From positions 436,108,001 to 436,172,000 of the forward strand of contig OZ024740.1 of the NCBI GenBank assembly GCA_964016885.1: 64,000 nucleotides of DNA, in the 5' to 3' direction. Below the pieces are notes generated by a model. It ran no database searches. It saw only the letters and a program-made list of their open reading frames with translations, and was not told the origin of the DNA. The stretch is from Eledone cirrhosa (Eukaryota). Of this stretch, positions 19,339 through 54,400 are shown piece by piece. The translations under genes were made by a program, and so were the position numbers. Every line of letters begins with the position of its first letter. Positions within the stretch are counted from its first letter, which is position 1.

Positions 19339-19482
19339 GAACTACTACCAAATCTTCACATCCATTTCCAAACGCAAGGATTTCACACATCTATGTACGC
19401 ATCCTCGTGGTTCCTGACACTGTTTGCTACATGCTTACCATTATCACTGGCTTGTCGAGTCATGGATCTGTTTATCTCTGAG
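19339..19482 (+). CDS. EVI5: Internal exon of an EVI5-like TBC-domain Rab GTPase-activating protein (ELLPNLHIHFQTQGFHTSMYASSWFLTLFATCLPLSLACRVMDLFISE)
   Basis: Pyrimidine tract plus TAG acceptor (AG 19337-38), GTAAT donor at 19483, 144 nt, phase 0/0. The FHTSMYASSWFLT motif is recognised from EVI5/EVI5L TBC domains. Confidence 0.93.
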
Positions 19483-30300: not shown

Positions 30301-33300
30301 CACCACTACCACACCTCTCCACTACACCTGTACACTACCACACCACTACCACACCTCTCCACTACACCTGTACACTACCAAACCACTACCACACCTCTAT
30401 ACTACACCTGTACACTACCACACCACTACCACACCTCTCCACTACACCTGTACACTACCACACCACTACCACACCTCTATACTACACCTGTACACTACCA
30501 CACCACTACCACACCTCTATACTACACCTGTACACTACCACACCACTACCACACCTCTCCACTACACCTGTACACTACCACACCACTACCACACCTCTAT
30601 ACTACACCTGTACACTACCACACCACTACCACACCTCTCCACTACACCTGTACACTACCACACCACTACCACACACCTGTACACTACCACACCACTACCA
30701 CACCTCTATACTACACCTGTACACTACCACACCACTACCACACCTCTCCACTACACCTGTACACTACCACACCACTACCACACCTCTATACTCCACCTGT
30801 ACGCTACCACACCACTACCACACCTCTATACTACACCTGTACACTACCACACCACTACCACACCTCTCCACTACACCTGTACGCTACCACACCACTACCA
30901 CACCTCTATACTACACCTGTACACTACCACACCACTACCACACCTCTCCACTACACCTGTACACTACCAAACCACTACCACACCTCTATACTACACCTGT
31001 ATACTACCACACCACTACCACACCTCTACACTACACCTGTACACTAATACACATCTATACTACACCTGTACACTACCACACCTCTCCACTACACCTGTAC
31101 ACTACCACACCTCTACACTACACCTCTACACTACCACACCAGTACCGCACCTCTACACTACACCTGTACACTACCACACCACTACACTACACCTGTACAC
31201 TAATACACATCTATACTACACCTGTACACTACCACACCACTACCACACCTCTATACTACACCTGTACACTACCACACCACTACCACACCTCTATACTACA
31301 CCTGTACACTACCACACCACTACCACACCTCTATACTACACCTGTACACTACCACACCACTACCACACCTCTATACTACACCTGTACACTATCACACCAC
31401 TACCACACCTCTATACTACACCTGTACACTATCACACCACTACCACACCTCTATACTACACCTGTACACTACCACACCACTACCACACCTCTATACTACA
31501 CCTGTACACTACCATACCACTACCACACCTCTACACTATACCTGTACACTACCACACCACTACCACACCTCTATACTACACCTGTACACTATCACACCAC
31601 TACCACACCTCTATACTACACCTGTACACTACCACACCACTACCACACCTCTATACTACACCTGTACACTATCACACCACTACCACACCTCTATACTACA
31701 CCTGTACACTACCACACCACTACCACACCTCTATACTACACCTGTACACTATCACACCACTACCACACCTCTATACTACACCTGTACACTACCACACCAC
31801 TACCACACCTCTATACTACACCTGTACACTATCACACCACTACCACACCTCTATACTACACCTGTACACTACCACACCACTACCACACCTCTATACTACA
31901 CCTGTACACTATCACACCACTACCACACCTCTATACTACACCTGTACACTATCACACCACTACCACACCTCTACACTACACCTGTACACTACCACACCTC
32001 TATACTACACCTGTACACTATCACACCACTACCACACCTCTATACTACACCTGTACACTATCACACCACTACCACACCTCTACACTACACCTGTACACTA
32101 CCACACCTCTATACTACACCTGTACACTATCACACCACTACCACACCTCTATACTACACCTGTACACTATCACACCACTACCACACCTCTACACTACACC
32201 TGTACACTACCACACCTCTACACTACACCTGTACACTACCACACCACTACCACACATCTACACTACACCTGTACACTACCACACCACTACTACACCTGTA
32301 CACTACCACACCACTACCACACCTCTACACTACACCTGTACACTATCACACCACTACCACACCTCTACACTACACCTGTACACTACACCTGTACACTACC
32401 ACACCTCTACACTACCACACCTCTACACTACACCTGTACACTACCACACCACTACCACACCTCTACACTACGACACCTCTACACTACACCTGTACACTAT
32501 CACACCACTACCACACCTCTACACTACCACTCCACTACCACACCTCTACACTACCACACCTCTACACTACACCTGTACACTACCACACCACTACCACACC
32601 TCTACACTACCACACCTCTACACTACACCTGTACACTACCACACCACTACCACACCTCTACACTACACCTGTACACTACCACACCACTACCACACCTCTA
32701 CACTACACCTGTACACTACTACACCACTACCACACCTCTACACTACACCTGTACACTACCGCACCACTACCACACCTCTATACTACACCTGTACACTACC
32801 ACACCTCTACACTACACCTGTACACTACCACACCACTACCACACCTCTATACTACACCTGTACACTACCACACCACTACCACACCTCTACACTACACCTG
32901 TACACTACCACACCACTACCACACCTCTACACTACACCTGTACACTACCACACCACTACCACACCACTATACTACACCTGTACACTACCACACCACTACC
33001 ACACCTCTATACTACACCTGTACACTACCACACCTCTATACTACACCTGTACACTACCACACCACTACCACACCTCTATACTACACCTGTACACTACCAC
33101 ACCACTACCACACCTCTATACTACACCTGTACTCTACCACACCTCTACACTACACCTGTACACTACCACACCTCTACCACACCTCTATACTACACCTGTA
33201 CACTACCACACCTCTACCACACCTCTACACTACACCTGTACACTACCACACCTCTACACCACACCTCTACACTACCACACCACTACCACACCATTACACT

Positions 33301-34532
33301 ACACCTGTACACTACCACACCACTACCACACCTCTACACTACACCTGTACACTACCACACCACTACCACACCTCTACACTACACATGTACACTACCACAC
33401 CACTACCACACCTCTACACTATCACACCACTACAACACCACTACCACACCTGTACACTATCACACCACTACCACACCTCTACACTACACCTGTACACTAC
33501 TACACCACTACACTACACCTGTACACTACCATACCACTACCACACCTCTACACTACACCTGTACACTACCACACCACTACTACACCTGTACACTACCACA
33601 CCACTACCACACCTCTACACTACACCTGTACACTACCATACCACTACCACACCTCTACACTACACCTGTACACTACCACACCACTACCACACCTGTACAC
33701 TACCACACCACTACCACACCTCTACACTACACCTGTACACTACCATACCACTACCACACCTCTACACTATACCTGTACACTACCACACCACTACCACACC
33801 TCTACACTACACCTGTACACTACCATACCACTACCACACCTCTACACTACACCTGTACACTACCACACCACTACCACACCTGTACACTACCACACCACTA
33901 CCACACCTCTACACTACACCTGTACACTACCATACCACTACCACACCTCTACACTATACCTGTACACTACCACACCACTACCACACCTGTACACTACCAC
34001 ACCTCTACACTACACCTGTACACTACCATACCACTACCACACCTCTACACTACACCTGTACACTACCACACCACTACCACACCTGTACACTACCACACCA
34101 CTACCACACCTCTACACTACACCTGTACACTACCATACCACTACCACACCTCTACACTATACCTGTACACTACCACACCACTACCACACCTGTACACTAC
34201 CACACCTCTACACTACACCTGTACACTACCATACCACTACCACACCTCTACACTACACCTGTACACTACCACACCACTACCACACCTGTACACTACCACA
34301 CCACTACCACACCTCTACACTACACCTGTACACTACCATACCACTACCACACCTCTACACTATACCTGTACACTACCACACCACTACCACACCTGTACAC
34401 TACCACACCTCTACACTACACCTGTACACTACCATACCACTACCACACCTCTACACTACACCTGTACACTACCACACCTGTACACTACCACACCACTACC
34501 ACACCTCTACACTACACCTGTACACTATCACA
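24376..34532. repeat. ~10.1-kb modular C/A-rich minisatellite, main unit 40 bp (ACTACACCTGTACACTACCACACCACTACCACACCTCTAT)
   Basis: 40-nt periodicity, exact at ~29700-30660; 29-, 27- and 13-nt variants arise by loss of submodules. Confidence 0.96.
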
Positions 34533-34656: not shown

Positions 34657-34850
34657 GGTGGTGGATTGGCAGTATCGGTAGACGGTCGGACGCCATGCTT
34701 TCACGCATAGAGTTACAGCCCTTGCCATTCTCAGTTCAAATCCCGCCGAGGTTAACTTTGCCTTTCATCCTTACGGGGTCGATAAAATAAAGTACCAGTA
34801 ATGCACTGGGTAATTGCTGGCCTTGTGCCAAAAGTAGAAACAATTATTAT
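34657..34850 (+). mobile_element. tRNA-derived SINE, unamplified copy
   Basis: A-box-like TGGCAGTATCGG, B-box GTTCAAATCC, body GGGGTCGATAAAATAAAGTACCAG, short (ATT) tail. Confidence 0.85.
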
Positions 34851-35147: not shown

Positions 35148-35237
35148 GGTATGGAAATTGTCTTTCGAATTGGGATGGCTATTCTGCAGATGAGTCAAGA
35201 AATATTAATGTCATTAGATATGGAAGGAATGTTAAAG
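35148..35237 (+). CDS. EVI5: EVI5-like internal exon (GMEIVFRIGMAILQMSQEILMSLDMEGMLK)
   Basis: TAG acceptor, AAG|GTAAAT donor, 90 nt, phase 0/0, in frame with the previous exon; resembles EVI5 GLEIVFRVG...LDMEGM. Confidence 0.93.
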
Positions 35238-35306: not shown

Positions 35307-36200
35307 GTGGAGGGGTGTAGCCTAGTGGTAAGGGTGTTCTGTGGAAGGGTGTGGTGTAGTGGTAAGGGTGTTCTGTGGAGGTGTGTGGTCTAGTGGTAAG
35401 GGTGTTCTGTGGAGGGGTGTGGTGTAGTGATAAGGGTGTTCTGTGGAGGGGTCTGGTGTAGTGGTAAGGGTGTTCTGTGGAGGGGTATGGCCTAGTGGTA
35501 AGGGTGTTCTGTGAAGGTGTGTGGCCTAGTGGTAAGGGTGTTCTGTGGAAGGGTGTGGTGTAGTGGTAAGGGTGTTCTGTGGAGGTGTGTGGTCTAGTGG
35601 TAAGGGTGTTCTGTGGAGGGGTGTGGTGTAGTGATAAGGGTGTTCTGTGGAGGGGTCTAGTGTAGTGGTAAGGGTGTTCTGTGGAGGGGTGTGGCCTAGT
35701 GGTAAGGGTGTTCTGTGAAGACGTGTGGCCTAGTGGTAAGATTGTTCTGTGGAGGTGCGTGGTGTAGTGGTAAGGGTGTTCTGAGGAGGGTGTGGTCTAG
35801 TGGTAAGGATGTTCTGTGGAGGGGTGTGGCCTAGTGATAAGGATGTTCTGTGGAGGGGTGTGGCCTAGTGATAAGGGTGTTCTGTGGAGGTGTGTGATGT
35901 AGTGGTAAGGGTGTTCTGTGGAGGGATGTGGTGTAGTGGTAAGGGTGTTCTGTAGAGAGGTGTGGTGTAGTGGTAAGGGTGTTCTGTAGAGGGGTGTGGT
36001 CTAGTGGTAAGGGTGTTCTGTAGAGGGGTGTGGTGTAGTGGTAAGGGTGTTTTGTGGAGGGGTGTGGTATAGTGGTAAGGGTGTTCTGTAGAGGGGTGTG
36101 CTGTAGTGGTAAGGGTGTTCTGTAGAGGGGTGTGGTGTAGTGGTAAGGGTGTTCTGTGGAGGGGTGTGGTCTAGTGGTAAGGGTGTTCAGTGGAGGGGTG
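35307..36200 (+). repeat. 34-bp minisatellite (GTGGAGGGGTGTGGCCTAGTGGTAAGGGTGTTCT), ~26 copies
   Basis: 34-nt periodicity; the unit contains the Pol III A-box-like TGGCCTAGTGG. Confidence 0.95.
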
Positions 36201-36325
36201 TGAGTATACTCTACTGAAAATCAGGACCAGCTCACAAAAACAGATTGATAACAATTGTACCAAATTTAAAAATACAAAGTACTGGTGTTGATATGATCAA
36301 CTAATTCCCCTGAAGGAACTGACCA

Positions 36326-37292
36326 AGCATGAGCACTGTCCTAGCATGGCCACAGTACAAGCATGACCACTGTCCTACCATGACCACTGACTTTCCATGA
36401 CAACTGACCAAGCATGGCCACTGTCCTAGCATGACCACAGTACAAGCATGGCCACTGTCCTAGCATGACCACAGTACAAGCATGGCCACAGTACAAGCAT
36501 GAGCACTGTCCTACCATGGCCACAGTACAAGCATGGCCACTGTCCTACCATGACCACTGACTTTCCATGACAACTGACCAAGCATGGCCACTGTCCTAGC
36601 ATGGCCACAGTACAAGCATGACCACTGTCCTAGCATGACCACTGACTTTCCATGACAACTGACCAAGCATGACCACTGTCCTAGCATGACCACAGTACAA
36701 GCATGGCCACTGTCCTACTATGACCACTGACTTTCCATGACAACTGACCAAGCATGGCTACTGTCCTAGCATGACCACAGTACAAGCATGACCACTGTCC
36801 TAGCATGACCACAGTACAAGCATGACCATTGTCCTAGCATGACCACAGTACAAGCATGACCACTGTCCTAGAATGACCACAGTACAAGCATGACCACTGT
36901 CCTAGCATGACCACTGTCCTAGCATGGCCACAGTACAAGCATGAGCACTGTCCTAGCATGACCACAGTACAAGCATGGCCACTGTCCTAGCATGACCACA
37001 GTACAAGCATGACCACTGTCCTAGCATGGCCACAGTACAAGCATGACCACTGTCCTAGCATGACCACAGTACAAGCATGACCACTGTCCTAGAATGACCA
37101 CAGTACAAGCATGACCACTGTCCTAGCATGACCACAGTACAAGCATGACCACTGTCCTAGCATGACCACAGTACAAGCATGACCACTGTCCTAGCATGGC
37201 CACAGTACAAGCATGACCACTGTCCTAACATGGCCACAGTACAAGCATGACCACTGTCCTAGCATGACCACAGTATAAGCATAACCACTGTC
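36326..37292 (+). repeat. 17+17-bp dimeric minisatellite (AGCATGACCACTGTCCT-AGCATGGCCACAGTACA)
   Basis: 34-nt periodicity of two related 17-mers, with an occasional GACTTTCCATGACAACTGACCA insert. Confidence 0.93.
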
Positions 37293-37571
37293 CAATGACT
37301 GAAATCAATAAAAGAATAAAAATCCATATATTCTTGTTTATTGAGATTCAGACTTGATTATTTTGACATCGTTAAAATTTCTCTTTATTGTTGCATCTTG
37401 TATAAATGGTTGTTCTATATCTTGAGGAAAAAAGTGGTGGAAAGATAAGATAGTGGGAGATTTACTTTAGCAGCGATATCTAACATTTACTTTACTTTTC
37501 CTAAAATATATAGAGATACCTTGTGCTTAGTGGAAGTTATTGTGGCTGTTTCCTATTTAGGATTACATAAC

Positions 37572-37845
37572 ATATAATAATGAAAATGATTGTGTACAGT
37601 GCTCAGGTGCACTACAACTCATCAAAGATGCATGTATAGTACATAGAATAATGTAGAAATGTCAGGAAAGTGAACAGTGTATGAGTCATGATATACACAC
37701 AGATACATGCGTGTGTGTGTATGTATGGAGAATATAAGGTATGTTGGTGAATTTCAGGAAGCATGGAAGTTTTAAAGGATGTAATGTTCCAACAGCTACC
37801 AACTGATGCAGGGAGTTTGTTCCATGCTTCAGTAACCCTGAAGAA
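37572..37845 (-). mobile_element. CR1-like LINE 3' fragment, unamplified relative of 49293-51392
   Basis: Reverse complement matches GTTGTAGTGCACCTGAGCACTGTACACAAT and carries one copy of the 61-bp unit. Confidence 0.85.
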
Positions 37846-37904
37846 ATTTTCTGTTAAGTTAAAAACACCAGATTAATGAAATAATTGATAATTTTAGAAA
37901 AGAA

Positions 37905-38805
37905 CTAGCAGTGGTACCTGGCATTGCACGGGATAAGGTATTTTGGAATGTGGGCCGCCAACAGACCTAATCGTGGAAAAACTGCATGCCTGGACAATAT
38001 GTAAAGAAAATAAACCGAATACTCTGATGGCTGGATAATCTTTAAGATTTTCCTTGATGAAGCAGGAAAAATGCAAGTTTTCACCTAATGTGGGCCCTAA
38101 GGGATCAAGAAAATGAATTTTTTTATGTGCATAATATGCCTTAAAATTTCAGGCAAATCGGCTAGGTGTAACGCCTTCAAAAAGCCCTAAAAAAGCTGAA
38201 AAAATGAAGTTTTTCACCTAATTCGGGTCCTAGGCCATAAAAAAGTTGGACTTTCTTTGCTCACGGGATGAAGAAGAGACTGACTAATACATAGTTACAA
38301 TTTCAAGGAAATCAGTCTGACGTAACGCCTCAACCCCCCCCCCCCCCCCCCAAAAAAAACCCCTGAAAAAACGCAGTTTTTCACCTAATGCAGGCCATAG
38401 GAATCAAAAAGTTGAATTTTTTATGTGCATAACACTCCCTGAAACAAGTAATACACATCTAAAGTTTGAAAAAAGTCGGTTGGGTACTTCTCGAGATTTA
38501 GGGATTCAAACACACACACACACACACAACAGACATCTTCAGGGAAGTGACGTAATGCAGAGTCAAACATACAGACATTATAAGGGCTAAAAAGAGAAAG
38601 ACTAAGAATTATAGAGAGAGATCGCTAAATCGCCAAATGCGGTCCCTAGGGCATTGAAAATTTGAAATTTTCTTTGCTCAGAACACTCCCTAAAACATAG
38701 GTATTACATGTGTAAAGTTTGAAAACAGTCGGTTGGGTGGTTCTCGAGTTTTAGGGATACAAACTCACACACACAGACAGACATCCTCAGTTTTATATAT
38801 ATAGA
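37905..38805 (-). mobile_element. Non-autonomous Helitron (~900 bp)
   Basis: Minus strand reads A|TC...subterminal hairpin (CCCGTGCAATGCCAGG)...CTAG|T, the canonical Helitron termini and AT target; internal ~150-bp duplications. Confidence 0.75.
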
Positions 38806-38886
38806 TGTTTCCAAAAGTCACGGGAGCTGTTTTCTGATTTTCTACATTTATATATAACATATATTTATTGTCTTTTATGTTTACAG

Positions 38887-38984
38887 TTTTTCCAGAAAAC
38901 AGTTCCTGCTATTTATGAACAAGACCAAGAGAAACTTATCCATACTGCTTTTCTTATCAAATACAATGCAAAAAAAATGAAAAA
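38887..38984 (+). CDS. EVI5: EVI5-like internal exon (FFQKTVPAIYEQDQEKLIHTAFLIKYNAKKMK+AA)
   Basis: TTTACAG acceptor, GTAAGG donor, 98 nt, phase 0/2, in frame; resembles EVI5 FQK...KY N.KKMKK. Confidence 0.92.
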
Positions 38985-39069
38985 GTAAGGTTTTTTTTTT
39001 CTTTCTATTCTTTTTCATTGTTTTACCCCTTTTTTCAAAAGTTGTAACTTGGTGCCTTCACTCCTAATT

Positions 39070-39200
39070 TCCTCCATAAAATCAAAAGGACAGTGACTCT
39101 CTTGAGGTGGGGTGGTCATTCTCCATGATAACACCATTGCTATTTTATCAGCAGGGCACAGTTGAGGCACCACTCAAACTGGGGTGAAGTAACTGTCTCA
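39070..39200 (+). mobile_element. Degraded mariner transposase remnant
   Basis: Translation IKSKGQ*LS*GGVVILHDN resembles the mariner segment (AI..KR..LL..GV.LLHDNA) around the second catalytic D. Confidence 0.5.
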
Positions 39201-42200
39201 ACTCAGACTGGGGTGTAGTGTCTGTCTCAACTCAGACTGGGGTGCAGTGTCTGTCTCAACTCAGACTGGGGTGCAGTGTCTGTCTCAACTCAGACTGGGG
39301 TCTAGTGTCTGTCCCACCTCAGACTGGGGTCTAGTGTCTGTCCCACCTCAGACTGGGGTCGAGTGTCTGTCTCAACTCAGACTGGGGTCGAGTGTCTGTC
39401 TCAACTCAGACTGCGGTGTAGTGTCTGTCTCAACTCAGACTGGGCTGTAGTGTCTGTCCCACCTCAGACTGTGGTTTAGTGTCTGTCTCAACTCAGACTG
39501 GGGTCTAGTGTCTGTCCCACCTCAGACTGGGGTCTAGTGTCTGTCTCACGTCAGACTGGTGTGTATTGTCTGTCTCAACTCAGACTGGGGTGTAGTGCCT
39601 GTCTCAACTCAGACTGGGGTGTAGTGTCTGTCTCAACTCAGACTGGGGTGTAGTGTCTGTCTCAACTCAGACTGCGGTGTAGTGTCTGTCTCAACTCAGA
39701 CTAGGGTGTAGTGTCTGTCTCAACTCAGACTGCGGTCTAGTGTCTGTCTCAATTCAGACTGGGGTCTAGTGTCTGTCTCAACTCAGACTGGGGTCTAGTG
39801 TCTGTCTCAACTCAGACTGGGGTGTAGTGTCTGTCCCACCTCAGACTGGGGTGTAGTGTCTGTCTCAATTCAGACTGGGGTCTAGTGTCTGTCTCAACTC
39901 AGACTGGGGTCTAGTGTCTGTCTCAACTCAGACTGGGGTCTAGTGTCTGTCTCAATTCAGACTGGGGTGTAGTGTCTGTCCCACCTCAGACTGGGGTGTA
40001 GTGTCTGTCTCAACTCAGACTGGGGTATAGTGTCTGGCTCAACTCAAACTGGGGTCTAGTGTCTGTCTCAACTCAGACTGGGGTCTAGTGTCTGTCTCAA
40101 CTCAGACTGGGGTCTAGTGTCTGTCTCAACTCAGACTGGGGTGTAGTGTCTGTCTCAACTAAGACTGGGGTGTAGTGTCTGTCTCAACTCAGACTGGGTC
40201 TAGTGTCTGTCTCAACTCAGACTGGGGTGTAGTGTCTGTCTCAACTCAGACTGGGGTGTAGTGTCTGTCTCAACTCAGACTGGGGTGTAGTGTCTGTCTC
40301 AACTCAGACTGGGGTGTAGTGTCTGTCTCAATTCAGACTGGGGTCTAGTGTCTGTCTCAACTCAGACTGGGGTCTAGTGTCTGTCTCAACTCAGACTGGG
40401 GTGTAGTGTCTGTCTCAACTCAGACTGGGGTCTAGTGTCTGTCTCAACTCAGACTGGGGTGTAGTGTCTGTCTCAACTCAGACTGGCGTGTATTGTCTGT
40501 CCCACCTCAGACTGGGGTGTAGTGTCTGTCTCAACTCAGACTGGGGTGTAATGTCTGTCTCAATTCAGACTGGGGTCTAGTGTCTGTCCCAACTCAGACT
40601 GGGGTCTACTGTCTGTCCCAGCTCAGACTGGGGTCTAGTGTCTGTCTCAACTCAGACTGGGGTGTAGTGTCTGTCTCAACTCAGACTGGGGTGTAGTGTC
40701 TGTCTTAACTCAGACTGGGGTCTAGTGTCTGTCTCAACTCAGACTTGGGTGTAGTGTCTGTCTCAACTCAGATTGGGGTCTAGTGTCTGTCTCAACTCAG
40801 ACTGGGGTCTAGTGTCTGTCTCAACTCAGTCTGGGGTCTAGTGTCTGTCTCAACTCAGTCTGGGGTCTAGTGTCTGTCTCAACTCAGTCTGGGGTGTAGT
40901 GTCTGTCTCAACCCAGACTGGGGTGTAGTGCCTGTCTCAACTCAGACTGGGGTCTAGTGTCTGTCTCAACTCAGTCTGGGGTCTAGTGTCTGTCTCAACT
41001 CAGACTGGGGTGTAGTGTCTGTCCCACCTCAGACTGGGGTCTAGTGTCTGTCTCAACTCAGACTGGGGTCTAGTGTCTGTCTCAACTCAGACTGGGGTGT
41101 AGTGTCTGTCCCACCTCAGACTGGGGTCTAGTGTCTGTCTCAACTCAGACTGGGGTCTAGTGTCTGTCCCAACTCAGACTGGGGTCTACTGTCTGTCTCA
41201 ACTCAGATTGGGGTCTACTGTCTGTCTCAACTCAGACTGGGGTCTAGTGTCTGTCCCACCTCAGACTGGGGTGTAGTGTCTGTCCCACCTCAGACTGGGG
41301 TGTAGTGTCTGTCTCAACTCAGACTGGGGTGTAATGTCTGTCTCAACTCAGACTGGTGTGTAGTGTCTGTCTCAACTCAGACTGGGGTGTAGTGTCTGTC
41401 TCAACTCAGACTGGGGTGTAGTGTCTGTCTCAACTCAGACTGGGGTGTATTGTCTGTCTCAACTCAGACTGGGGTGTAGTGTCTGTCCCACCTCAGACTG
41501 GGGTGTAGTGTCTGTCTTAACTCAGACTGGGGTCTAGTGTCTGTCTCAACTCAGACTGGGGTGTAGTGTCTGTCCCACCTCAGACTGGGGTGTAGTGTCT
41601 GTCGCACCTCAGACTGGGGTGTAGTGTCTGTCTCAACTCAGACTGGGGTTTAGTGTCTGTCTCAACTCAGACTGGGGTGTAGTGTCTGTCTCAACTCAGA
41701 CTGGTGTGTAGTGTCTGTCTCAACTCAGACTGGTGTGTAGTGTCTGTCTCAACTCAGACTGGGGTGTAGTGTCTGTCTCAACTCAGACTGGTGTCTAGTG
41801 TCTGTCTCAACTCAGACTGGTGTGTAGTGTCTGTCCCACCTCAGACTGGGGTGTAGTGTCTGTCTCAACTCAGACTGGGGTGTAGTGTCTGTCTCAACTC
41901 AGACTGGGGTCTAGTGTCTGTCTCAACTCAGACTGGTGTGTAGTGTCTGTCTCAACTCAGTCTGGGGTGTAGTGTCTGTCTCAACCCAGACTGGGGTGTA
42001 GTGCCTGTCTCAACTCAGACTGGGGTGTAGTGTCTGTCCCACCTCAGACTGGGGTGTATTGTCTGTCTCAACTCAGACTGGGGTCTAGTGTCTGTCCCAC
42101 CTCAGACTGGGGTCTAGTGTCTGTCCTACCTCAGACTAGGGTCTAGTGTCTGTCTCAACGCAGACTGGGGTCTAGTGTCTGTCTCAACTCAGACTGGGGT

Positions 42201-43327
42201 GTAGTGTCTGTCCCAGCTCAGACTGGGGTCTAGTGTCTGTCTCAACTCAGACTGGGGTCTAGTGTCTGTCCCAGCTCAGACTGGGGTCTAGTGTCTGTCT
42301 CAACTCAGACTGGGGTCTAGTGTCTGTCCCAGCTCAGACTGGGGTCTAGTGTTTGTCTCAACGCAGACTGGGGTCTAGTGTCTCTCTCAACTCAGACTGG
42401 GGTCTAGTGTCTGTCCCAGCTCAGACTGGGGTCTAGTGTCTGTCCCACCTCAGACTGGGGTGTAGTGTCTGTCCCACCTCAGACTGGGGTGTAGTGTCTG
42501 TCCCACCTCAGACTGGGGTGTAGTGTCTGTCTCAACTCAGACTGGGGTGTAGTGTCTGTCTCAACTCAGACTGGGGTCTAGTGTCTGTCTCAACTCAGAC
42601 TGGTGTGTAGTGTCTGTCCCACCTCCGACTGGGGTCTAGTGTCTGTCCCACCTCAGACTGGGGTGTAGTGTCTGTCTCAACTCAGACTGGGGTGTAGTGT
42701 CTGTCTTAACTCAGACTGGGGTCTAGTGTCTGTCTCAACTCAGACTGGGGTCTAGTGTCTGTCTCAACTCAGACTGGGGTCTAGTGTCTGTCTCAACTCA
42801 GACTGGGGTCTAGTGTCTGTCCCAGCTCAGACTGGGGTCTAGTATCTGTCCCACCTCAGACTAGAGTCTAGTGTCTGTCTCAACACAGACTGGGGTCTAG
42901 TGTCTGTCTCAACTCAGACTGGGGTGTAGTGTCTGTCCCAGCTCAGACTGGGGTCTAGTGTATGTCTCAACTCAGACTGGGGTCTAGTGTCTGTCCCAGC
43001 TCAGACTGGGGTCTAGTGTCTGTCTCAACTCAGACTGGGGTCTAGTGTCTGTCCCAGCTTAGACTGGGGTCTAGTGTTTGTCTCAACGCAGACTGGGGTC
43101 TAGTGTCTCTCTCAACTCAGACTGGGGTCTAGTGTCTGTCCCAGCTCAGACTGGGGTCTAGTGTCTGTCTCAACTCAGACTGGGGTCTAGTGTCTGTCCC
43201 AGCTCAGACTGGGGTCTAGTGTCTGTCTCAACGCAGACTGGGGTGTAGTGTCTGTCCCAGCTCAGACTGGGGTCTAGTGTCTGTCTCAACGCAGACTGGG
43301 GTCTAGTGTCTGTCTCAACTCAGACTG
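39176..43327. repeat. 29-bp minisatellite (GTCTGTCTCAACTCAGACTGGGGTCTAGT), ~143 copies
   Basis: Direct 29-nt periodicity; variants tctcaa/cccacc and gtct/gtgt. Confidence 0.97.
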
Positions 43328-43704
43328 TATCTAGTATCTGTCCCTTTCCCTCTCCGTTTCTTTCATTGCTTGGTTCTTTTGTTTTTGTAGAAACAGTTTT
43401 GTGAAATCATTTCTACCTTCTATAATATTCTACTCTATATTCCATTATACTCTACTCTATATTCCATTATACTCTACTCTATATCCTACTACAACTCTGT
43501 GTCTTGTCTGTAATAATGGGAAAATACTTGAAATAAAGTTGTTCCTGAAATCGGAATAGAAATGGAATAAAACAAGTTTTGTGTAAATGAGAGCACGGGT
43601 TCTCGAAATATGGGGTTTTCTGGGTACCTTCATAAATAGAGAGAAAGATAGTGGGTGTGAGAGAGGAGATTGAAAATTTCATTTTACATTATAGACAAGT
43701 CTGT

Positions 43705-43832
43705 CATCATCATCTTCGTTTAACGTCCATTTTCCACACTAGCATGGGTTAGACGGAAGTTGTCCCACTTGAGGCAAGGTTGGTCGGGTGACCGTGTCTC
43801 ATATAGCACTGTCTGGCAGGTTTTCTATGGCT
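43705..43832 (-). mobile_element. RTE 3' tail fragment
   Basis: CATCATC..GTTTAACGTCC...CTAGCATGGGTT...CCCACTTGAGGCAAG is the reverse complement of the RTE 3' UTR. Confidence 0.75.
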
Positions 43833-43867
43833 GTATATATTTTAATTATTTAAAAATTATTTGTAAA

Positions 43868-44120
43868 CTAGCTGAGATACCTGGTAATACCCAGGAGCGG
43901 GGGTATTCCCAGTTCCCATTAAAATGCCCAGTGCCTCTCAGACCAAAAATGAAATCAAAATATAGGACAGATAATAAAAATATAGGACAGATAATCAAAA
44001 TATAGGACAGATAATAAAAATAGAGGACAGATAATCAAAATATAGGACAGATAATCAAAATATAGGACAGATAATCAAAATATAGGACAGATAATCAAAA
44101 TATAGGACAGATAATCAAAA
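43868..44120 (-). mobile_element. Helitron 3' end fragment with a 20-bp tandem repeat (AAAATATAGGACAGATAATC, ~7-8 copies, ~43967-44120)
   Basis: A|CTAG followed by hairpin CCTGG-TAATAC-CCAGG, the same geometry as at 37905; the 5' TC end was not found. Confidence 0.55.
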
Positions 44121-44147
44121 GCGATGACAAATTCATTTACGAAACAA

Positions 44148-44647
44148 TAATGGTTTCTACTTTATGCACAAGGCCAGTAATTTGGGGGGGGAGGGGAAAG
44201 TCGATTAAATCAACGCCAGTACATTACCGGTACTTTATTTTATCGACCCCATAAGGATGAAAGGCAAAGTTAACCTCGGCGGGATTTGAACTCAGACCGT
44301 AAAGGGACGTAACTATGCTGCAAAGCATGGTGTCCGACCCTCTACCGACACTGCCAATCCACCCCCCTGGTGTCCGACCCTCTACCGACACTGCCAATCC
44401 ACCCCCCCCTGGTGTCCGACCCTCTACCGACACTGCCAATCCACCCCCTGGTGTCCGACCCTCTACCGACACTGCCAATCCACCCCCTGGTGTCCGACCC
44501 TCTACCGACACTGCCAATCCACCCCCTGGTGTCCGACCCTTTACCGACACTGCCAATCCACCCCCTGGTGTCCGACCCTCTACCGACACTGCCAATCCAC
44601 CCCCTGGTGTCCGACCCTCTACCGACACTGCCAATCCCCCCCCCCCC
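44148..44647 (-). mobile_element. tRNA-derived SINE whose 39-bp A-box head is repeated 8 times (44329-44647)
   Basis: Reverse complement is colinear with the SINE at 34657-34850; one B-box (GTTCAAATCC) and 8 copies of GGTGGATTGGCAGTGTCGGTAGAGGGTCGGACACC. Confidence 0.9.
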
Positions 44648-44699
44648 TTTATGATAATACAAATATTGTTGATTGCATTGGTCAGATCTTCTGTGTTTC

Positions 44700-44831
44700 T
44701 ATGTACCTATATGTGTGTGTGACTGTGTATATATGTAGCTGTGTATATGTATATATATATGTAGCTGTGTATATATGTTACTGTGTATATGTATATATAT
44801 ATGTAGCTGTATATGTGTATATATATGTTAC

Positions 44832-44866
<35 letters not shown>

Positions 44867-45651
44867 GTTACTGTGTATATGTATATATATATGTAGCTGT
44901 GTATATATGTTACTGTGTGTATATATATATATATATGTAGCTGTGTATATATGCTACTGTGTATATATATATATATATGTAGCTGTATATATGTTACTGT
45001 GTATATGTATATATATATGTAGCTGTGTGTATATGTTACTGTGTATATGTATATATATATGTAGCTGTGTGTATATGTTACTGTGTATATGTATATATAT
45101 ATGTAGCTGTGTGTATATGTTACTGTGTATATGTATATATATATGTAGCTGTATATATGTTACTGTGTATATATATATATATATGTAGCTGTATATATAT
45201 GTTACTGTGTGTATATATATATATATATATATATGTAGCTGTGTATATATGCTACTGTGTATATATATATATATATGTAGCTGTATATATGTTACTGTGT
45301 ATATGTATATATATATGTAGCTGTATATATGTTACTGTGTATATATATATATGTAGCTGTATATATATGTTACTGTGTATATATATATATATATATATGT
45401 AGCGGTGTATATATGTTACTGTGTATATATATATATATATGTAGCTTTGTATATATGTTACTGTGTATATGTGTGTATATATGTAGCTGTATATATATGT
45501 TACTGTGTATATGTGTATATATATATGTGTATATATATGTTACTGTGTATATGTATATATATATGTACTGTGTATATGTATATATATGTTACTGTGTATA
45601 TGTGTATATATAGGTAGCTGTATATATATGTACTGTGTATATGTATATATA
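44700..45651. repeat. Complex TA microsatellite punctuated by GTAGCTGT/GTTACTGT; continues at 46037-46322 and 48441-48872
   Basis: Direct inspection. Confidence 0.9.
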
Positions 45652-46036
45652 AGGCCAGTAGGCATCTCTAACAAAATACACCCCGTCCCACCACCACCAC
45701 CCCCACCCCATCCACACCACCCCGTTCTATGTAAAGTTATGTTGGTGCCGCGCCATCCGGGCCGAAACAAATGAGATCGTGTAGGTGTCACGACAAAAAA
45801 ACACACAGTCCACGCTGTAATGTGGCCGTGTAGGCAACACGGTAAAAACCTCCCAGACCCACACTGTAAATGTGGTTGGTGTTAGGAAGGGCATCCAACT
45901 GTAGAAAACCTGCCAGACAGTCCTATGCGAGCAAGACAATCACTCTTGCCTCAAGTGGGACTACCCCCGTCCAAACCCATGCAAGCGTGGAACACGGACG
46001 TTAAACGTTGATGATGATGATGATGATGATGATGAT
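45652..46036 (+). mobile_element. RTE 3' UTR copy, almost identical to 48053-48440
   Basis: Differs visibly only by a 9-bp CCACACCAC indel, one T/C substitution and tail length. Confidence 0.93.
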
Positions 46037-46324
46037 GTTACTGTGTATATGTGTGTATATATGTAGCTGTATATATATGTTACTGTGTATATGTGTGTAT
46101 ATATGTAGCTGTATATATATATGTTACTGTGTATATGTGTATATATATGTTACTGTGTATGTGTATATATATATGTAGCTGTGTATATGTTATTGTGTAT
46201 ATGTATATATATAGGTTACTGTGTATATGTGTGTATATATGTAGCTGTATATATATGTTACTGTGTATATGTATATATATATGTAGCTGTATATATATGT
46301 TGCTGTCTATATGTATATATATAA

Positions 46325-48070
46325 AGGCTACTAAATGAGGAGAATAAATGGGAGAAAGACAGTCTCCCCCATGTCGACCCAATAGAGGGACCAGCAGTGT
46401 TAGTCGAGGGGAGTATAATAAGTAAGGCAATCAAGGATATGAAGACAGGTAAGGCGGCTGGGCCTTCGGAAATAGTTGCTGAGATGCTGAAGGCATCTGG
46501 CACGGTGGGACACACCATGGTCACCCGCATAGTTAACCAAGTCGTACAGAATGGGGTTGTTCCGAAGGACTGGCATAGCAGCATCATCGTTAACTGTTAT
46601 AAGGGTAAAGGAGACGCCCTAGATAGGAGTAACTATAGAGGCATTAAATTAATCGACCAGGTCATGAAGGTCACAGAAAAAGTAATAGCGCAACTAATCA
46701 GAGAGAGAATTGACCTAGATGAAATGCAGTTCGGGTTTGTGTCAGGCAAAAGTACCACAGACGCTCTTTTCATAGTACGACAACTACAGGAGAAGTACCT
46801 AGCTAAAGGTAAACCCCTCTACTTAGCTTTTGTCGACTTGGAGAAAGCCTTCGACAGAGTCCCCCGCTCCATTATCTGGTGGGCTCTTAGAAAACTAGGC
46901 GTTGACGAATGGCTTGTGAGGGCTATACAAGCCATGTATAAAGAAACAGTCAGCAAGGTTAGAATTAACAACGAATATAGTGAAGAGTTTAGCGTAAAAG
47001 TTGGCGTCCATCAGGGCTCTGTTCTCAGCCCCCTACTATTTATTATTGCCCTTCAGGCTATAACAGAGGAGTTCAAGACAGGCTGCCCATGGGAACTCCT
47101 ATACGCAGACGACCTGACACTCATAGCGGAATCAATGGCCGAGCTAGAGAAGAAATTCCAAACATGGAAGCACGGCCTAGAGTCAAAAGGACTTAAAATT
47201 AACCTGGCTAAGACCAAAGTTCTAGTTTGTAGGAAAGAAAACAAGGCGGCGGTCCCTTCTGGGAAATGGTCGTGCTCGGTGTGTAGGAAAGGCGTAGGTA
47301 GAAACTCCATTTTGTGTCCTAAATGCAAAGTATGGGTGCATAAAAGATGTAGTGGGATCACAGGTAAGCTAACTAAGAACATAGATTTTACATGTGGCCG
47401 GTGTTCTGGTGCAATAAGTAGCAGCAAGTGCCCACACAATACTAGCTCTTTCAATTGCGCAGAGGGTTCTATAGAAATAGTGGACAGCTTCCGTTACCTG
47501 GGCGATAAAATCAGCAGTGGGGGAGGGTGCTCTGAAAGTACTGTAGCTAGAGTCAGAACTGGTTGGAAAAAGTTCAGAGAGCTTATACCACTATTAGCTG
47601 CTAAAGGGTTCTCCCTAAAAATGAAAGGCAGGTTGTACGATGCCTGCATACGAACAGCAATGTTGCATGGCAGTGAGACCTGGGCATTGTGTGCAGAGGA
47701 TATACGCAGACTAGAGAGGAACGAAGCTTGCATGCTCCGCTGGATGTGTAACAGTAATATACGTGAACGGCAAAGCATAAACGAACTAAGGAAAAAATTA
47801 GAGATAAGAGGGATCAGATGTTGTTTACTCGAGAGAAGGCTACGTTGGTATGGACACGTGATGCGCATGAAAGTCGATAGCTGTATAACAAAGTGCAGGG
47901 CAATAAAGATAGACGGTAGCCACGGAATAGGCAGACCTAGAAAAACCTGGGACGAGCTGATAAACTCCGACCTCACACACTTACACCTCTCCAAGACAAT
48001 GTCACTGGACCGAGACCTTTGGCGGTACTCAGTAACAGAGAAGACCCGCCTTGCCAGTAGGCATCTCTAA
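46325..48070 (+). CDS. RTE reverse transcriptase, C-terminal part (open reading frame, no native start), with an inserted C4HC3 PHD-type finger
   Basis: Motifs NYRGIKL, QFGF, FVDLEKAFD, GVHQGSVLSP, LYADDL, FRYLG, LHGSETW, RLRWYGHV, GRPRKTW; no internal stops. Confidence 0.88.
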   Translation, partial: RLLNEENKWEKDSLPHVDPIEGPAVLVEGSIISKAIKDMKTGKAAGPSEIVAEMLKASGTVGHTMVTRIVNQVVQNGVVPKDWHSSIIVNCYKGKGDALDRSNYRGIKLIDQVMKVTEKVIAQLIRERIDLDEMQFGFVSGKSTTDALFIVRQLQEKYLAKGKPLYLAFVDLEKAFDRVPRSIIWWALRKLGVDEWLVRAIQAMYKETVSKVRINNEYSEEFSVKVGVHQGSVLSPLLFIIALQAITEEFKTGCPWELLYADDLTLIAESMAELEKKFQTWKHGLESKGLKINLAKTKVLVCRKENKAAVPSGKWSCSVCRKGVGRNSILCPKCKVWVHKRCSGITGKLTKNIDFTCGRCSGAISSSKCPHNTSSFNCAEGSIEIVDSFRYLGDKISSGGGCSESTVARVRTGWKKFRELIPLLAAKGFSLKMKGRLYDACIRTAMLHGSETWALCAEDIRRLERNEACMLRWMCNSNIRERQSINELRKKLEIRGIRCCLLERRLRWYGHVMRMKVDSCITKCRAIKIDGSHGIGRPRKTWDELINSDLTHLHLSKTMSLDRDLWRYSVTEKTRLASRHL

Positions 48071-48440
48071 CAAAATACACCCCGTCCCACCACCACCACC
48101 CCCACCCCATCCACACCACCCACACCACCCCGTCCTATGTAAAGTTATGTTGGTGCCGCGCCATCCGGGCCGAAACAAATGAGATCGTGTAGGTGTCACG
48201 ACAAAAAAACACACAGTCCACGCTGTAATGTGGCCGTGTAGGCAACACGGTAAAAACCTCCCAGACCCACACTGTAAATGTGGTTGGTGTTAGGAAGGGC
48301 ATCCAACTGTAGAAAACCTGCCAGACAGTCCTATGCGAGCAAGACAATCACTCTTGCCTCAAGTGGGACTACCCCCGTCCAAACCCATGCAAGCGTGGAA
48401 CACGGACGTTAAACGTTGATGATGATGATGATGATGATGA
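46325..48440 (+). mobile_element. 5'-truncated RTE-clade LINE with (GAT)n tail
   Basis: RT ORF plus 3' UTR; no APE endonuclease domain present; flanked by the TA microsatellite. Confidence 0.93.
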
Positions 48441-48795
48441 TATGTAGCTGTATATATATGTTACTGTGTATATGTGTATATATATATGTAGCTGTATATA
48501 TATGTTACTGTGTATATGTGTGTATATATATATGTTACTGTGTGTATGTGTATATATATGTTACTGTGTGTATGTGTATATATATATGTTACTGTGTGTA
48601 TGTATATATATATATATGTTACTGTATATGTATGTATATATATATGTTACTGTGTATATGTGTATATATATCTATATATTTTACTGTATATGTTACTGTA
48701 TGTGTGTATATATATATATATATATATGTTACTGTGTATATGGCTGTATATATATATGTTACTGTGTATATGTTTATATATATATGTATATGTAG

Positions 48796-48853
<58 letters not shown>

Positions 48854-48874
48854 TACTGTGTATGTGTGTGTATA

Positions 48875-49236
48875 TCATCATCATCACCATTTTACGTCCG
48901 TCTTCCATGCTAGCATGGGTTAGACGGGTTGTCCTGTTGTGGGCAGTGTCCAGTTAGCTGACCTTGCCTTGCTCATACGGGAACTGATTGTGGCTTGATT
49001 TCATAAGCTGGATGCCCTTCCTAACCCCAACCTCATTTACAGTGAGTGCTGGGTGCTTTTTTACCGTGGCACCTAAACGACCACTTTGCAGTGGGAGGCT
49101 GTAGGGGCATATTGTCTATATGCTTGTCCCTGTGGGAAGTCGGGTCTTCTGTATTACTGTGTGATGCCAGAGGTCACGGTCCTGTGTCATCACCTTTGAG
49201 AGGTGTAATTGGGTAAGGTTGGCCTTTATCACCTCT
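48875..49236 (-). mobile_element. RTE 3' fragment, diverged subfamily
   Basis: Minus-strand translation LTQLHLSKVMTQDRDLWHHTVIQKTRL parallels the RTE C-terminus; (CAT)n tail and CCATGCTAGCATGG present. Confidence 0.85.
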
Positions 49237-49292
49237 GTGTATATATATATATATATGTAGCTGTATATATGTGTTATTGTGTATGTGTGTGT

Positions 49293-51392
49293 GGGCATGG
49301 ATTCATTGAAGCTCCGACGTCTGCCAATGGACTTGGTAAACACCCAGAAAGTTATTAACCATCTCACCAACAACAACCCTGAGCACCTTTTTGATCTCCA
49401 TGTGTCTAACACATGTGGACATGCCTACAAAGTCAGAAAACAGCACAGCTCCCATGACTTTCGGAAACATTTTGTCACTCTTAGAGTTGCTGAAGCATGG
49501 AACAAACTGACTGCATCAGTTGTTAGCTGCCGAGACACTGCATCCTTTAAAACGTCCATGGAACAAACTACCTACACCAGTTGTTAGCTGTCGAGACACT
49601 GCATCCTTTAAAACGTCCATGGAACAAACTACCTGCATCAGTTGTTAGCTGTCGAGACACTGCATCCTTTAAAACCTCCATGGAACAAACTCCCTGTATC
49701 AGTTGTTAGCTGTCGAGACACTGCATCCTTTAAAACCTCCATGGAACAAACTACCTGCATCAGTTGTTACCTGTCGAGACACTGCATCCTTTAAAACCTC
49801 CATGGAACAAACTGCCTGCATCAGTTGTTAGCTGTCGAGACACTGCATCCTTTAAAACCTCCATGGAACAAACTACCTGCATCAGTTGTTAGCTGTCGAG
49901 ACACTGCATCCTTTAAAACCTCCATGGAACAAACTCCCTGTATCAGTTGTTAGCTGTCGAGACACTGCATCCTTTAAAACCTCCATGGAACAAACTACCT
50001 GCATCAGTTGTTAGCTGCCGAGACACTGCATCCTTTAAAACCTCCATGGAACAAACTACCTACATCAGTTGTTACCTGCCGAGACACTGCATCCTTTAAA
50101 ACCTCCATGGAACAAACTACCTGCATCAGTTGTTAGCTGTCGAGACACTGCATCCTTTAAAACCCCCATGGAACAAACTGCCTGCATCAGTTGTTAGCTG
50201 TCGAGACGCTGCATCCTTTAAAACCTCCATGGAACAAACTGCCTGCATCAGTTGTTAGCTGTCGAGACACTGCATCCTTTAAAACCTCCATGGAACAAAC
50301 TACCTACATCAGTTGTTAGCTGTCGAGACACTGCATCATTTAAAACCTCCATGGAACAAACTGCCTGCACCAATTGTTAGCTGTCAAGACACTGCATCCT
50401 TTAAAACCTCCATGGAACAAACTACCTGCATCAGTTGTTAGCTGTCAAGACACTGCATCCTTTAAAACGTCCATGGAACAAACTGCCTGCATCAGTTGTT
50501 AGCTGGCGAGACACTGCATTCTTTAAAACCTCCATGGAACAAACTGCCTGCGTCAGTTGTTAGATGTCGAGACACTGCATCCTTTAAAACCTCCATGGAA
50601 CTAACTACCTGCATCAGTTGTTAGCTGCCGAGACACTGCATCCTTTAAAACCTCCATGGAACAAACTCCCTGCGTCAGTTGTTAGCTGCTGAGACACTGC
50701 ATCCTTTAAAACCTCCATGGAACAAACTGCCTGTATCAGTTGTTAGCTGTCGAGACACTGCATCCTTTAAAACGTCCATGGAATAAACTCCCTGCGTCAG
50801 TTGTTAGCTGCCGAGACACTGCATCCTTTAAAACCTCCATGGAACAAACTGCCTGCATCAGTTGTTAGCTGTCGAGACACTGCATCCTTTAAAACCTCCA
50901 TGGAACAATCTGCCTGCATCAGTTATTAGCTGCCGAGACACTGCATCCTTTAAAACCTCCATGGAACAAACTGCCTGTGTCAGTTGTTAGCTGCCGAGAC
51001 ACTGCATCATTTAAAACCTCCATGGAACAAACTGTCTGCATCAGTTGTTAGCTGCCGAGACACTGCATCCTTTAAAACCTCCATGGAACAAACTGCCTGC
51101 GTCAGTTGTTAGCTGCCGAGACACTGCATCCTTTAAAACCTCCATGGAACAAACTGCCTGCGTCAGTTGTTAGCTGCCGAGACACTGCATCATTTAAAAC
51201 CCTCATGCTTCTTGAAATACGCCAAAACTACACCCGATGTACCCCTTCCATACACATGCACATGTGTATATCATGACTGATGAACTGTTCATTTTCCTGA
51301 CGTTTGTACATTATTCTATGTACTATACATGCACCTTTGATGAGTTGTAGTGCACCTGAGCACTGTACACAATTTCATTATTATTATTATTA
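49293..51392 (+). mobile_element. CR1-like LINE 3' fragment with an internal tandem amplification and (ATT)n tail
   Basis: Translation SLKLRR..DL...GHAYKV...RKHFVTLRVAEAWNKL..SVV...SFK matches the CR1 ORF2 C-terminus pattern. Confidence 0.85.
49496..51207 (+). repeat. 61-bp minisatellite, 28 copies
   Basis: CATG recurs every 61 nt from 49496 to 51204 (1708 = 28 x 61). Confidence 0.97.
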
Positions 51393-51449: not shown

Positions 51450-54400
51450 TCTTTTACTCCTTTAGCCATCCGGCTGAGGCCATGCTGGGGCACCGCCCTT
51501 GTTGCTACACATTTTATTTCCAGCCTGTATAGGTTGGCCACTGGTGTAAGAGGGAGTTTGTTGCTGCTGCCCTTAGGTTTGCCTCGTGTCTTGCTGTGCG
51601 CTCATCCGGGATCCTGGATAACAAGGTGTCGAGATATTTCTTGAAGACATCCCCCTCCACGTCATGCAAATCTCTCAGATCCCTCGGCAGCTTGTTGAAG
51701 AGTTGAGGGCCCTTGCATCCCAGGCTATTGCAATACCTGCTCCTTATTCTAGATGTGGAAGTCAGGACCTTTGGCACCATACAGTGACGTCCTGTTCGAC
51801 GGTTGGTCCAGCTCCCAATGCCAAAGTTTGGTGCTAGTCCCTCCACGATTTTCCACATGTAGATCACTGCGTATCTCTCCCGTCTTCGCTCCAAGGAGTA
51901 GAGGTTCAGTTCCTTTAGCCTCTCCCAGTAGCTTGTCTCCCTCATCTTGGCAATCCTCTTGGTGTAGCTTCGCTGGATTGCCTCAAGCTCCGTGGTTAGT
52001 TTGACACTATGGGGTGACCACAACTGGGAGCAGTAGTCCAGGCGGCTTAGGACAAATGTCCTCCATAGTGTCAACATGGTGTCTCGATCTCTTGTCCGGA
52101 GAGTCCTCAAGATCCAGCCAGCGAGTCGTCTGCACATTGTCGCCACTTTCATGATATGTGAGGAAAAAGATGCATCATCGCTCATGTCTATGCCCAGGTC
52201 TCGTATCGATTTTGACACGGGGATATCGGTCCCTCCTGCTCCTGTGTAGTTGTGTTGTACTATATTTGTGTTTGCAGGTTTGTTTGGAGGTTTGTATTGT
52301 AGGGCTTGGAATTTGCCAGCATTAAACTGCATGTTGTTTTCTTCCGCCCATTTGTATATGGCATCCAGATCCTGCTGTAAAAGGGCAGCGTCAGCCGGGT
52401 TTTTGATTGCCTGTGCTACCTTAGTGTCATCAGCATAGCTAGTGAGGGATGTTGTTGTATGTACTACAGAGGGCATGTCTGAGAGAGTCACCAAAAACAG
52501 TAGTGGTCCCAGGACTGTCCCCTGGGGCACCCCACTTGCTGCGACTGCCTGGCTTGTGTCCTTTAGGAAGCCATGCAGCCACTCACCTACTTTTCCAGTT
52601 ATGCCGAGTCAGTGTAGTTTGTGAGATATCATTCCGTGGTCGACCTTGTCAAAGGCCTTCGCAAAGTCAAGATATATCACGTCCACATGTGAGCTGTCTA
52701 GTAGTTGTTTCAGTACCCAGTCATAGTGATGTAGCAGCTGTGTAAGGCAGCTTCTTCCTGGGCAGAAGCCATGTTGCGTGCTAGTCAGGCGGTCATTTTC
52801 CTCGAGGAAAATGATCAGTTTCTTTCTGACGACTCGCTCCATGACCTTACTGATATGCGACGTCAGGGAGACTGGCCTATAGTTTTTGGCCTCCGCTCTG
52901 CTACCTCCTTTATGGATAGGGCATATTGTGCCTTCTTTCAGCTCCCTGGGTAGTACATCGCTAGCCAAGGAGCTTCTGAAGAGCATCTTCAGTGGAGTTG
53001 CTAAGGCCTGCTTACAAATTTTTAAGAGAACTGCTGGGAATCCATCAGGTCCAGCAGCCGAGTCTGTTCTAATTTCATCAATGGCGTACACCACATCCTC
53101 CTCCGTTATGTCTATGTGGTTGATGGTTGCCATTTCTTCATGTAGTGTTGTGGCATCAAAGAACTCCTCTGGCTTCGTTATTTGCATGTGCCTCAGTGGA
53201 CATGTGAACACACTTTTGTACTGTTCGTTCAGTATTTCACATATCTCTTGGGGGTTTTCGGTTAATGACCCGTCTGTATGGAAGAGTGGCCCAATCTTGC
53301 AGTGTACTGAGGCAGTTTCTTTTGCAAATTTAAAGAAGGCCTTAGGGTTTGTTTTAATGTTTTCTATGGCCCTGTTCTCTTTCTTTGCCCTGTCATTCTC
53401 ATGGGAAAGCTTGAGTGCAATCTCGGTGCCAAGTAGTGCACATTTCAAATAGGATTCCTTCTTGTTTTTGTTTTGTTGACTATTCAACTGGTTTGAGAGT
53501 TTGGTTCTACATCTCATAAGGATTTTCCTATCTCTGGGAATAAGATTTTTGTGTCTGTTTGCCTTTTTCTCCGGGACAAACTTTTTGCATATAGTGTGTA
53601 TCGTTGTCATGAAGTGTTGAAATTGTGTGTTAGTGTCTTGTGTGGCGGTGTTTTCACTCCATGTTTGCTTCCGGATTTCACTCTTAATCTTTTTCCTGTT
53701 AGCCTTGTAGAAGTTAAGGCTGGATAACATCCCGGAGCTTCTTGGTGGTTTTGTCTCTGTTGGTTCTCTTGGACCACATATCATTAGCTCTACTAAGTTA
53801 TGATCCGAGAGAATTGTTGGTGTCACCTTTACATTGTGGATGAGCACTTCGTTGTTTGTAAAACAGAGGTCCAGGACATTTTCGCCTCTTGTTGGGAGGA
53901 GTATTGCTTGCTCCATGAACAGCCTGTATGTGAGGGCCAGCATGGATTCTGTCTGTCTCTGTTCTATTGACGTCATTCCAGGGAGGAGGTTGCCCTCAGG
54001 CCATTTGACCTTTGGTAGGTTGAAGTCTCCCAGCAGTAGAATGTTGAGACCCTGGTCCAGTTTGTCAAGGACCTCTTCTATCCTACTTAGGCTATTCTCA
54101 AATTTACCCTCATGACTGGGGGCATCGGGCGGCCGATATGTGACACATATTACTGTCTGTAGTTGCTTCATATGTACTATCAGTGTGTCACAGACTGAGT
54201 TTGAATGTGTCAACAGTACAATTGGTGTGACATCTTCACGGATATACAGAGCAACCCCACCATGAGTTCTCTCCTTCCTGTCCAAACGAAATACAGTATA
54301 TTTCGGTATATGTATTTCTGCATCTGCTATACTGCTTGTCAGGTGCGTTTCGGTTAGTGCCATGCATAGTGCTTGATTGCTTATGGCTAAGTCTCCCAGG

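Follow-up and report, generated by a model that had tools for sequence, protein, structure and literature searches.

Minisatellites derived from transposons have been described before (PMC3389668; PMC9659126), and in the human genome transposons are given as the source of 23% of minisatellites and satellites, with hot-spot regions and growth by local duplication. In squamates, the satellites sSat1-3, built from parts of short interspersed nuclear elements (SINEs), have been attributed to unequal recombination and concerted evolution; the main text of that paper does not use the term ‘gene conversion’ (PMC10702118). Satellite biology has yet to settle how tandem repeats reach many loci. Here we analyse a 64,000-nucleotide stretch of the octopod Eledone cirrhosa (assembly GCA_964016885.1, contig OZ024740.1, positions 436,108,001 to 436,172,000; hereafter, the window), in which six minisatellite arrays lie inside copies of dispersed transposons, and where donor, recipient and distance are readable from the sequence because recipients keep their own flanks, subfamily marks and edge units. 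The window sits at 436.1 Mb on chromosome C1 (442.9 Mb), 6.7 Mb short of the chromosome end, in a genome of 3.0 Gb; C1 and C2 are its two largest chromosomes.

An earlier note on the window, made from its letters alone, had proposed that transposon segments were repeatedly converted into minisatellites here. Tandem Repeats Finder (TRF) recovered all six of its arrays in place, which are listed with their remnants and unamplified relatives (LINE, long interspersed nuclear element):

34657..34850, forward strand: intact single-head SINE1 copy, an unamplified relative of the 39-mer (40 best genome matches 95-100% identical).
35307..36202, forward strand: 34-mer, 26 copies, from the head of SINE2 (TRF); family clustered at C1 429-442 Mb.
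36203..36231, forward strand: SINE2 body remnant after an internal deletion (29-bp match, 83-86%; the stretch occurs in intact bodies).
36324..37293, forward strand: 17/34-mer in the tail of an older SINE, with the element on both sides (TRF; 73-84% identity).
37762..37826, reverse strand: single-unit copy of the LINE end that forms the 61-mer (sequence).
39172..43342, forward strand: 29-mer, 144 copies, in a dispersed element, likely a LINE 3′ end (TRF; private junction).
43953..44120, forward strand: 20-mer, eight copies, in a young dispersed element that ends like a Helitron (TRF; private).
44328..44643, reverse strand: 39-mer, eight copies, the first 39-40 bases of SINE1 with the body attached at 44140-44327 (TRF).
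49496..51201, forward strand: 61-mer, 28 copies, the 3′ end of a CR1-like LINE (TRF; subfamily B in its flanks and last unit, subfamily A at its inner junctions).

For each of the six arrays the unit is single-copy in other copies of the dispersed element (6/6), and transposon sequence continues beside the array, on both sides for the 17/34-, 29-, 20- and 61-mers and on the body side for the two SINE heads. This includes the two cases put forward as weak, where 10 of 11 fetched relatives carry the 29-mer once and 14 of 14 carry the 20-mer once; the single-unit relatives at 34657 and 37762-37826 are present in the sequence as described. The arrays are absent from most copies of each element, and by these marks all six can be classed as transposon-derived minisatellites. 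They are not an assembly artefact at the level of the family, although the copy numbers given here are assembly values: the head-to-tail joint of the 61-mer was found in raw reads from another sample of the same species label (264 reads, 11 starts), and one contig assembled from short reads runs from the unique flank as far as the second unit of the 34-mer with zero differences (its sample may be the source sample).

The process that generates such arrays is genome-wide, as the earlier note had suspected, and the density of events that it took as unusual in itself reflects the position of the window 6.7 Mb from a chromosome end. Of 18 interior samples of C1, each of 10 kb, 2 contained complex arrays, as did 11 of the 18 samples from positions 8 Mb after the starts of other chromosomes; most sampled array units had no dispersed match in a library of ~0.6 Mb. 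Nor are the events ‘unrelated’ or the segments ‘arbitrary’, as had been supposed: three of the six units recur as multi-locus families with an identical junction, and the same element segments are reused elsewhere at other unit lengths. The units are locus-specific for the 17/34-, 29- and 20-mers and recur elsewhere for the 34-, 39/40- and 61-mers. Our reading, to which we assign a probability of roughly 0.7, is that the arrays likely arose after insertion of their hosts and that three of the six were likely brought in, as a whole or in part, when ectopic gene conversion or template switching used arrays in nearby copies of the same element. The observations behind it are the nesting of arrays in transposons, their recurrence and distal position, units rather than flanks shared locally, and resident edges around foreign cores.

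The host of the 61-mer contains a non-LTR (long terminal repeat) reverse-transcriptase open reading frame of 500 aa (RVT_1, E 5e-35) that ends at the unit; from the resemblance of its C-terminal motif we take it to be a CR1-like element. The unit spans CATG to CATG, one in each arm of a hairpin whose stem measures 10 bp. Genome-wide, the joint between units is present 19,809 times, and exact-edge patterns gave 929 copies with at least two units versus 5,614 with one. Arrays and single copies differ in position, in line with the subtelomeric enrichment that the earlier note had thought worth checking: on C1 and C2, the nearest end is no more than 50 Mb away for 77 of 83 arrays versus 18 of 48 exact single copies (p 1e-11, with a cut-off picked after the lists were seen), these two chromosomes holding only 83 of the 929 arrays versus 48 of 110 exact singles. 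At 20.0 Mb on C1, a 27-29-mer array of more than 10 kb is built from an interior portion of this 61-bp LINE segment.

Units of this family are shared between neighbours. Among 58 arrays with at least four units (18 of 76 arrays had fewer and were excluded), the sharing of established unit variants fell from 0.122 at less than 1 Mb to 0.073 at 1-5 Mb and 0.041-0.045 beyond (permutation p 0.001). The host flanks followed no such trend, neither the tails (p 0.67, 46 loci) nor the 5′ flanks (p 0.13, 44 loci). One host bears a private variant of arrays 1-2 Mb away, and another has units resembling the ones in an array only 20 kb from it. Mosaic arrays point in the same direction. In hosts of subfamily B, the last unit is of type B in 6/6, the window array included, whereas 36 of the 37 inner junctions in these six hosts are A-type and none is B (a further host with GG-type units was excluded from this count). 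The A/B difference takes in bases outside the hairpin in four of the six, so that local hairpin correction is no explanation there. Within the window array itself, a gradient runs from pure A units to B-like units at the 3′ end. A tree built from 60 tails shows 12 changes of the array label, of which strong branches force at least six; this reads as several origins or imports of 61-mer arrays.

The SINE-head families display a comparable local confinement. The 34-mer unit corresponds to a duplicated SINE2 head of 91 bp that lacks the 57 bp between two GTGTT motifs, and a trimer of the 91-mer lies 0.8 Mb from the window array. There are 169 exact matches to the 34-mer joint, the first 100 listed all falling at C1 429.6-435.4 Mb, and none in the first 429 Mb of C1; the loci counted are nine at C1 429-442 Mb, one on C8 and one on C21. 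SINE2 itself is found on all chromosomes (146 exact 44-mers). The nine loci on C1 amount to eight insertions within 13 Mb, those at 441.6 and 442.0 Mb sharing their 3′ flank. This shared flank is what speaks for segmental duplication or scaffolding errors as the cause of local clustering, an explanation that we regard as very improbable: 5′ flanks are unrelated (eight loci compared), and comparison of 400-bp 5′ flanks at 12 loci gave as sole match 45 bp between two loci on different chromosomes. Segmental duplication fails because the flanks are unrelated, and target-site duplications are distinct as well; against scaffolding errors stands the presence of the junctions in raw reads and in the short-read contig.

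A second SINE2 group lies on C23 at 14.3-16.1 Mb, where four insertions carry 91-mers with the same derived changes (the five-change type). All 41 exact matches to this derived 91-mer are confined to that interval, at three of the four insertions. The unit consensuses of these hosts are 96-100% alike versus 86-92% for their bodies; two of the four keep a first unit of resident type, and three have their own target-site duplication. The SINE1 copy that carries the 39-mer in the window is inserted in a Helitron-like element. Its 39/40-mer joint has 41 matches, which comprise the window array and seven other loci (four within the final 20 Mb of C3, another on C19 and a pair on small contigs), and the 40-mer junction is carried by SINE1 copies whose bodies are of two types. 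The SINE hosts, candidate tRNA-derived SINEs, have high copy number and target-site duplications, and putative RNA polymerase III (Pol III) boxes as judged by eye; we take the SINEs of the window to resemble those of other octopods.

Further arrays derive from the SINE1 head. A 45-mer forms many arrays (including C1:10.32-10.37 Mb and C28 at 8 Mb), has 5,336 head-to-head joints of varied length, and is mixed with 40-mers at one locus; a run of T closes the unit and might be the trace of a short transcript made by Pol III. In six other stretches, recurrent 46-56-bp arrays derive from one segment of another dispersed element.

Could master elements that already held arrays or dimers have carried them in by retrotransposition, with lengthening only later? 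Arrays are clustered on the trees of both 61-mer tails and SINE2 bodies, dimers make up 14 of 76 fetched arrays, and the SINE-head units begin at the 5′ end of the element, where jumps of the reverse transcriptase could create a dimer. Set against this, singles are evenly spread and arrays distal, bodies are far more diverged than units, first units are resident, and hosts belong to several subfamilies; moreover, no preference of retrotransposition for sites within a few Mb of the donor is known. Carriage fails because of the position of the arrays and the divergence of units versus bodies, and we hold it to be quite unlikely.

That each array instead originated and expanded where it now stands, separately from the others and at hot spots of sequence, with convergence producing the shared junctions, is also unlikely, if somewhat less so. 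It suits the 17/34-, 29- and 20-mers; a hairpin and a CATG repeat are intrinsic to the 61-mer, the units of some dimers are private and identical, and arrays of GG type occur in hosts of GG type. It cannot yield A-type junctions in B hosts, a five-change 91-mer type limited to neighbours, a two-step 34-mer junction recurring within 13 Mb, or the decay of shared unit variants with distance. Pure in-place birth covers three arrays only and is contradicted for the other three.

The three arrays that it covers are private to this locus. Exact matches fall at the window locus in 11 of 11 and 29 of 30 cases for the 17/34-mer, in 24 of 24 for the 29-mer and in 5 of 5 for the 20-mer. In the host of the 20-mer, the unit is flanked by an 8-bp direct repeat that is already present in the unamplified element, and short direct repeats are a classic substrate for slippage duplication. 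The same host has a sharp CTAG end with a short palindrome just inside it in 13 of 14 relatives (one end examined). Ten relatives of the 29-mer host share 150-500 bp that end just past the unit, and their translated remnants recall, as we read them, the end of a restriction-endonuclease-type LINE. The ‘mariner-like’ context given for this array in the earlier note found no support, neither a transposase remnant nor terminal inverted repeats being seen; Tc1/mariner was rejected as host on translated remnants of the relatives, which by eye show no transposase. Six Mb away, at C1:442.59 Mb, the segment that gives the window 29-mer forms a 31-mer array with a different junction.

Several points weigh against transfer from nearby copies. 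Hosts of 61-mer arrays group together on the tail tree (none of 500 shuffles gave so few changes), and six SINE2 bodies with 34-mers group loosely on theirs with two changes, so that a single origin is possible; that tree has no strong branch, includes three truncated long rows and uses controls biased to young copies. The distance effect is modest, with thresholds set once the data were seen, and 27 of the 37 inner junctions in B hosts belong to the window array. In two of the six B hosts, the window’s included, the A/B difference is of two bases, and hairpin-templated correction is also possible. Three of the six arrays (17/34-, 29- and 20-mer) have not spread. The last unit is wholly resident in several mosaics, an outcome that a single crossover or simple gap repair would not yield; it points to a switch back to where the resident unit begins, or to a later exchange with a single-unit allele, rather than to one circle crossover. 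Finally, the basis is one haploid assembly, in which transfer is deduced from sequence, not seen happening.

Gene conversion or template switching between neighbours can be pictured as the last of three steps. A segment would first duplicate in place at a short direct repeat, such as the 8 bp of the 20-mer or the CATG in the hairpin stem of the 61-mer, or at a SINE 5′ end; the structures are present in the sequence, the process itself being presumed. Unequal exchange would then lengthen the arrays, mostly near chromosome ends and on small chromosomes, which are presumably places of high recombination. In the third step, repair in a single-unit copy would copy units from a neighbouring array, which is possible because thousands of such copies are homologous to the unit. 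The outcome would be foreign inner units inside resident flanks and resident edge units, the pattern observed in the mosaics.

The gene that houses part of these arrays has three in-frame exons in the window, and we take it to be EVI5-like:

19339..19482, forward strand: exon with Pfam PF00566 (RabGAP-TBC), E 6e-13, and AG/GT ends; best solved relative RabGAP1-like.
35148..35237, forward strand: next in-frame exon (open frame, AG to GT; alone without Pfam match).
38887..38984, forward strand: third in-frame exon in the window (open frame), followed by a GT donor (38985).

More exons of this TBC gene lie upstream, 21 kb and ~120 kb before exon 19339-19482. No exon following donor 38985 was found in the next 225 kb by a crude scan of motif and composition, nor did a Pfam family search give one downstream. 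Between located exons lie only the 34-mer and 17/34-mer arrays, to which the claim that the arrays sit within the introns of one gene applies; the other four merely follow the donor at 38985. The claimed inflation of introns is borne out: tandem repeats make up ~73% of the window, and an upstream intron of ~100 kb in the same gene contains one 41-mer array of at least 58 kb (C1:436,048,001-436,105,772). A contig of a related organism aligns over the exon, the alignment ending before the 34-mer array. A search of RNA records for the exon region listed none, a result that carries no information on expression. Arrays account for a large part of intron length at the locus, with no effect on the gene and no array function shown; the introns simply grow.

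Giant arrays also stand back to back at C1:436.24-436.37 Mb (a 40-mer of ~22 kb, a 29-mer of ~70 kb and a 26-mer of at least 36 kb), and other large arrays of the window occupy 8-3663, 4048-19248, 24379-34532 and 56310-62134 (a 33-mer, an 18-mer of 853 copies and two C/A-rich arrays). A young RTE-like LINE at 46325-48416 has a 580-aa open frame with RVT_1 and PHD matches, its 3′ end being copied at 45652-46037 within a TA-rich repeat. A second long LINE remnant (51460-55000, reverse strand) directly follows the 61-mer element; a long inverted repeat flanked by two TA runs (22565-23466) is like a foldback element or a miniature inverted-repeat transposable element, and ~200 N at 62597-62799 mark an assembly gap. 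Searches for tRNA and Rfam families gave none in the window.

The arrays may, more tentatively, act as homing elements without a protein, in which a break-prone sequence and a repetitive template bias conversion from array to single copy, so that each family spreads like an infection among the transposon copies of one chromosome end. We regard this as doubtful but possible; if it is true, most intron growth in the genome would stem from dispersed repeats converted in this way. Independently of it, the ~900 arrays of one unit, together with the locally confined families, would map the partners of ectopic repair and the reach of conversion (a few Mb), which is of value in an animal that has no genetic map and would directly test for a conversion bias towards arrays.

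How, then, does this locus compare with known systems, as far as the available parts of the sources describe them? For human transposon-derived minisatellites, local expansion is described rather than transfer between copies, and the human set covers 0.32% of the genome versus 73% tandem DNA in this window. The squamate sSat1-3 (PMC10702118) are similar in several respects: a portion of a SINE is repeated in tandem next to the remainder of the element, and the resulting arrays occur at many loci, are subtelomeric while the SINE itself is evenly spread, and have units that are homogeneous within and between loci. By contrast, sSat units measure ~70-290 nt versus 17-91 bp here, and the sources here extend to LINEs and a Helitron-like element, unlike the SINE-only sSat. 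At least four part-SINE units with an extended terminal unit, as in sSat, are found in the 34-, 17/34- and 39-mers, and many subtelomeric loci in the 34- and 39/40-mers, the 17/34-mer being a single locus. The window arrays were rejected as true members of sSat, since their units of 17-39 bp are not the 70-290-nt units of Squam1-3 SINEs; they are an analogue. In the accessible part of PMC10702118, we found no test of sharing between neighbours or of resident versus foreign units, and a literature search of limited coverage returned no report of arrays moving between single transposon copies with a decay over distance, or of such arrays in cephalopods.

The spread itself is matched by the Rsp-like satellite that entered 1.688 clusters on the X chromosome of Drosophila simulans (PMC7403614). 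There, too, a repeat colonises loci via homology with an abundant dispersed partner, junction types are shared, and interlocus conversion, template switching or circles are proposed. As judged from sequence, the arrays described here would bear the same signature of unit transfer between loci with shared junctions. In the Rsp-like case two satellites are joined by microhomology, whereas here the repeat lands in single transposon copies, which themselves hold the unit; and, unlike in that case, several families spread in parallel here, with a sharing that fades over a few Mb.

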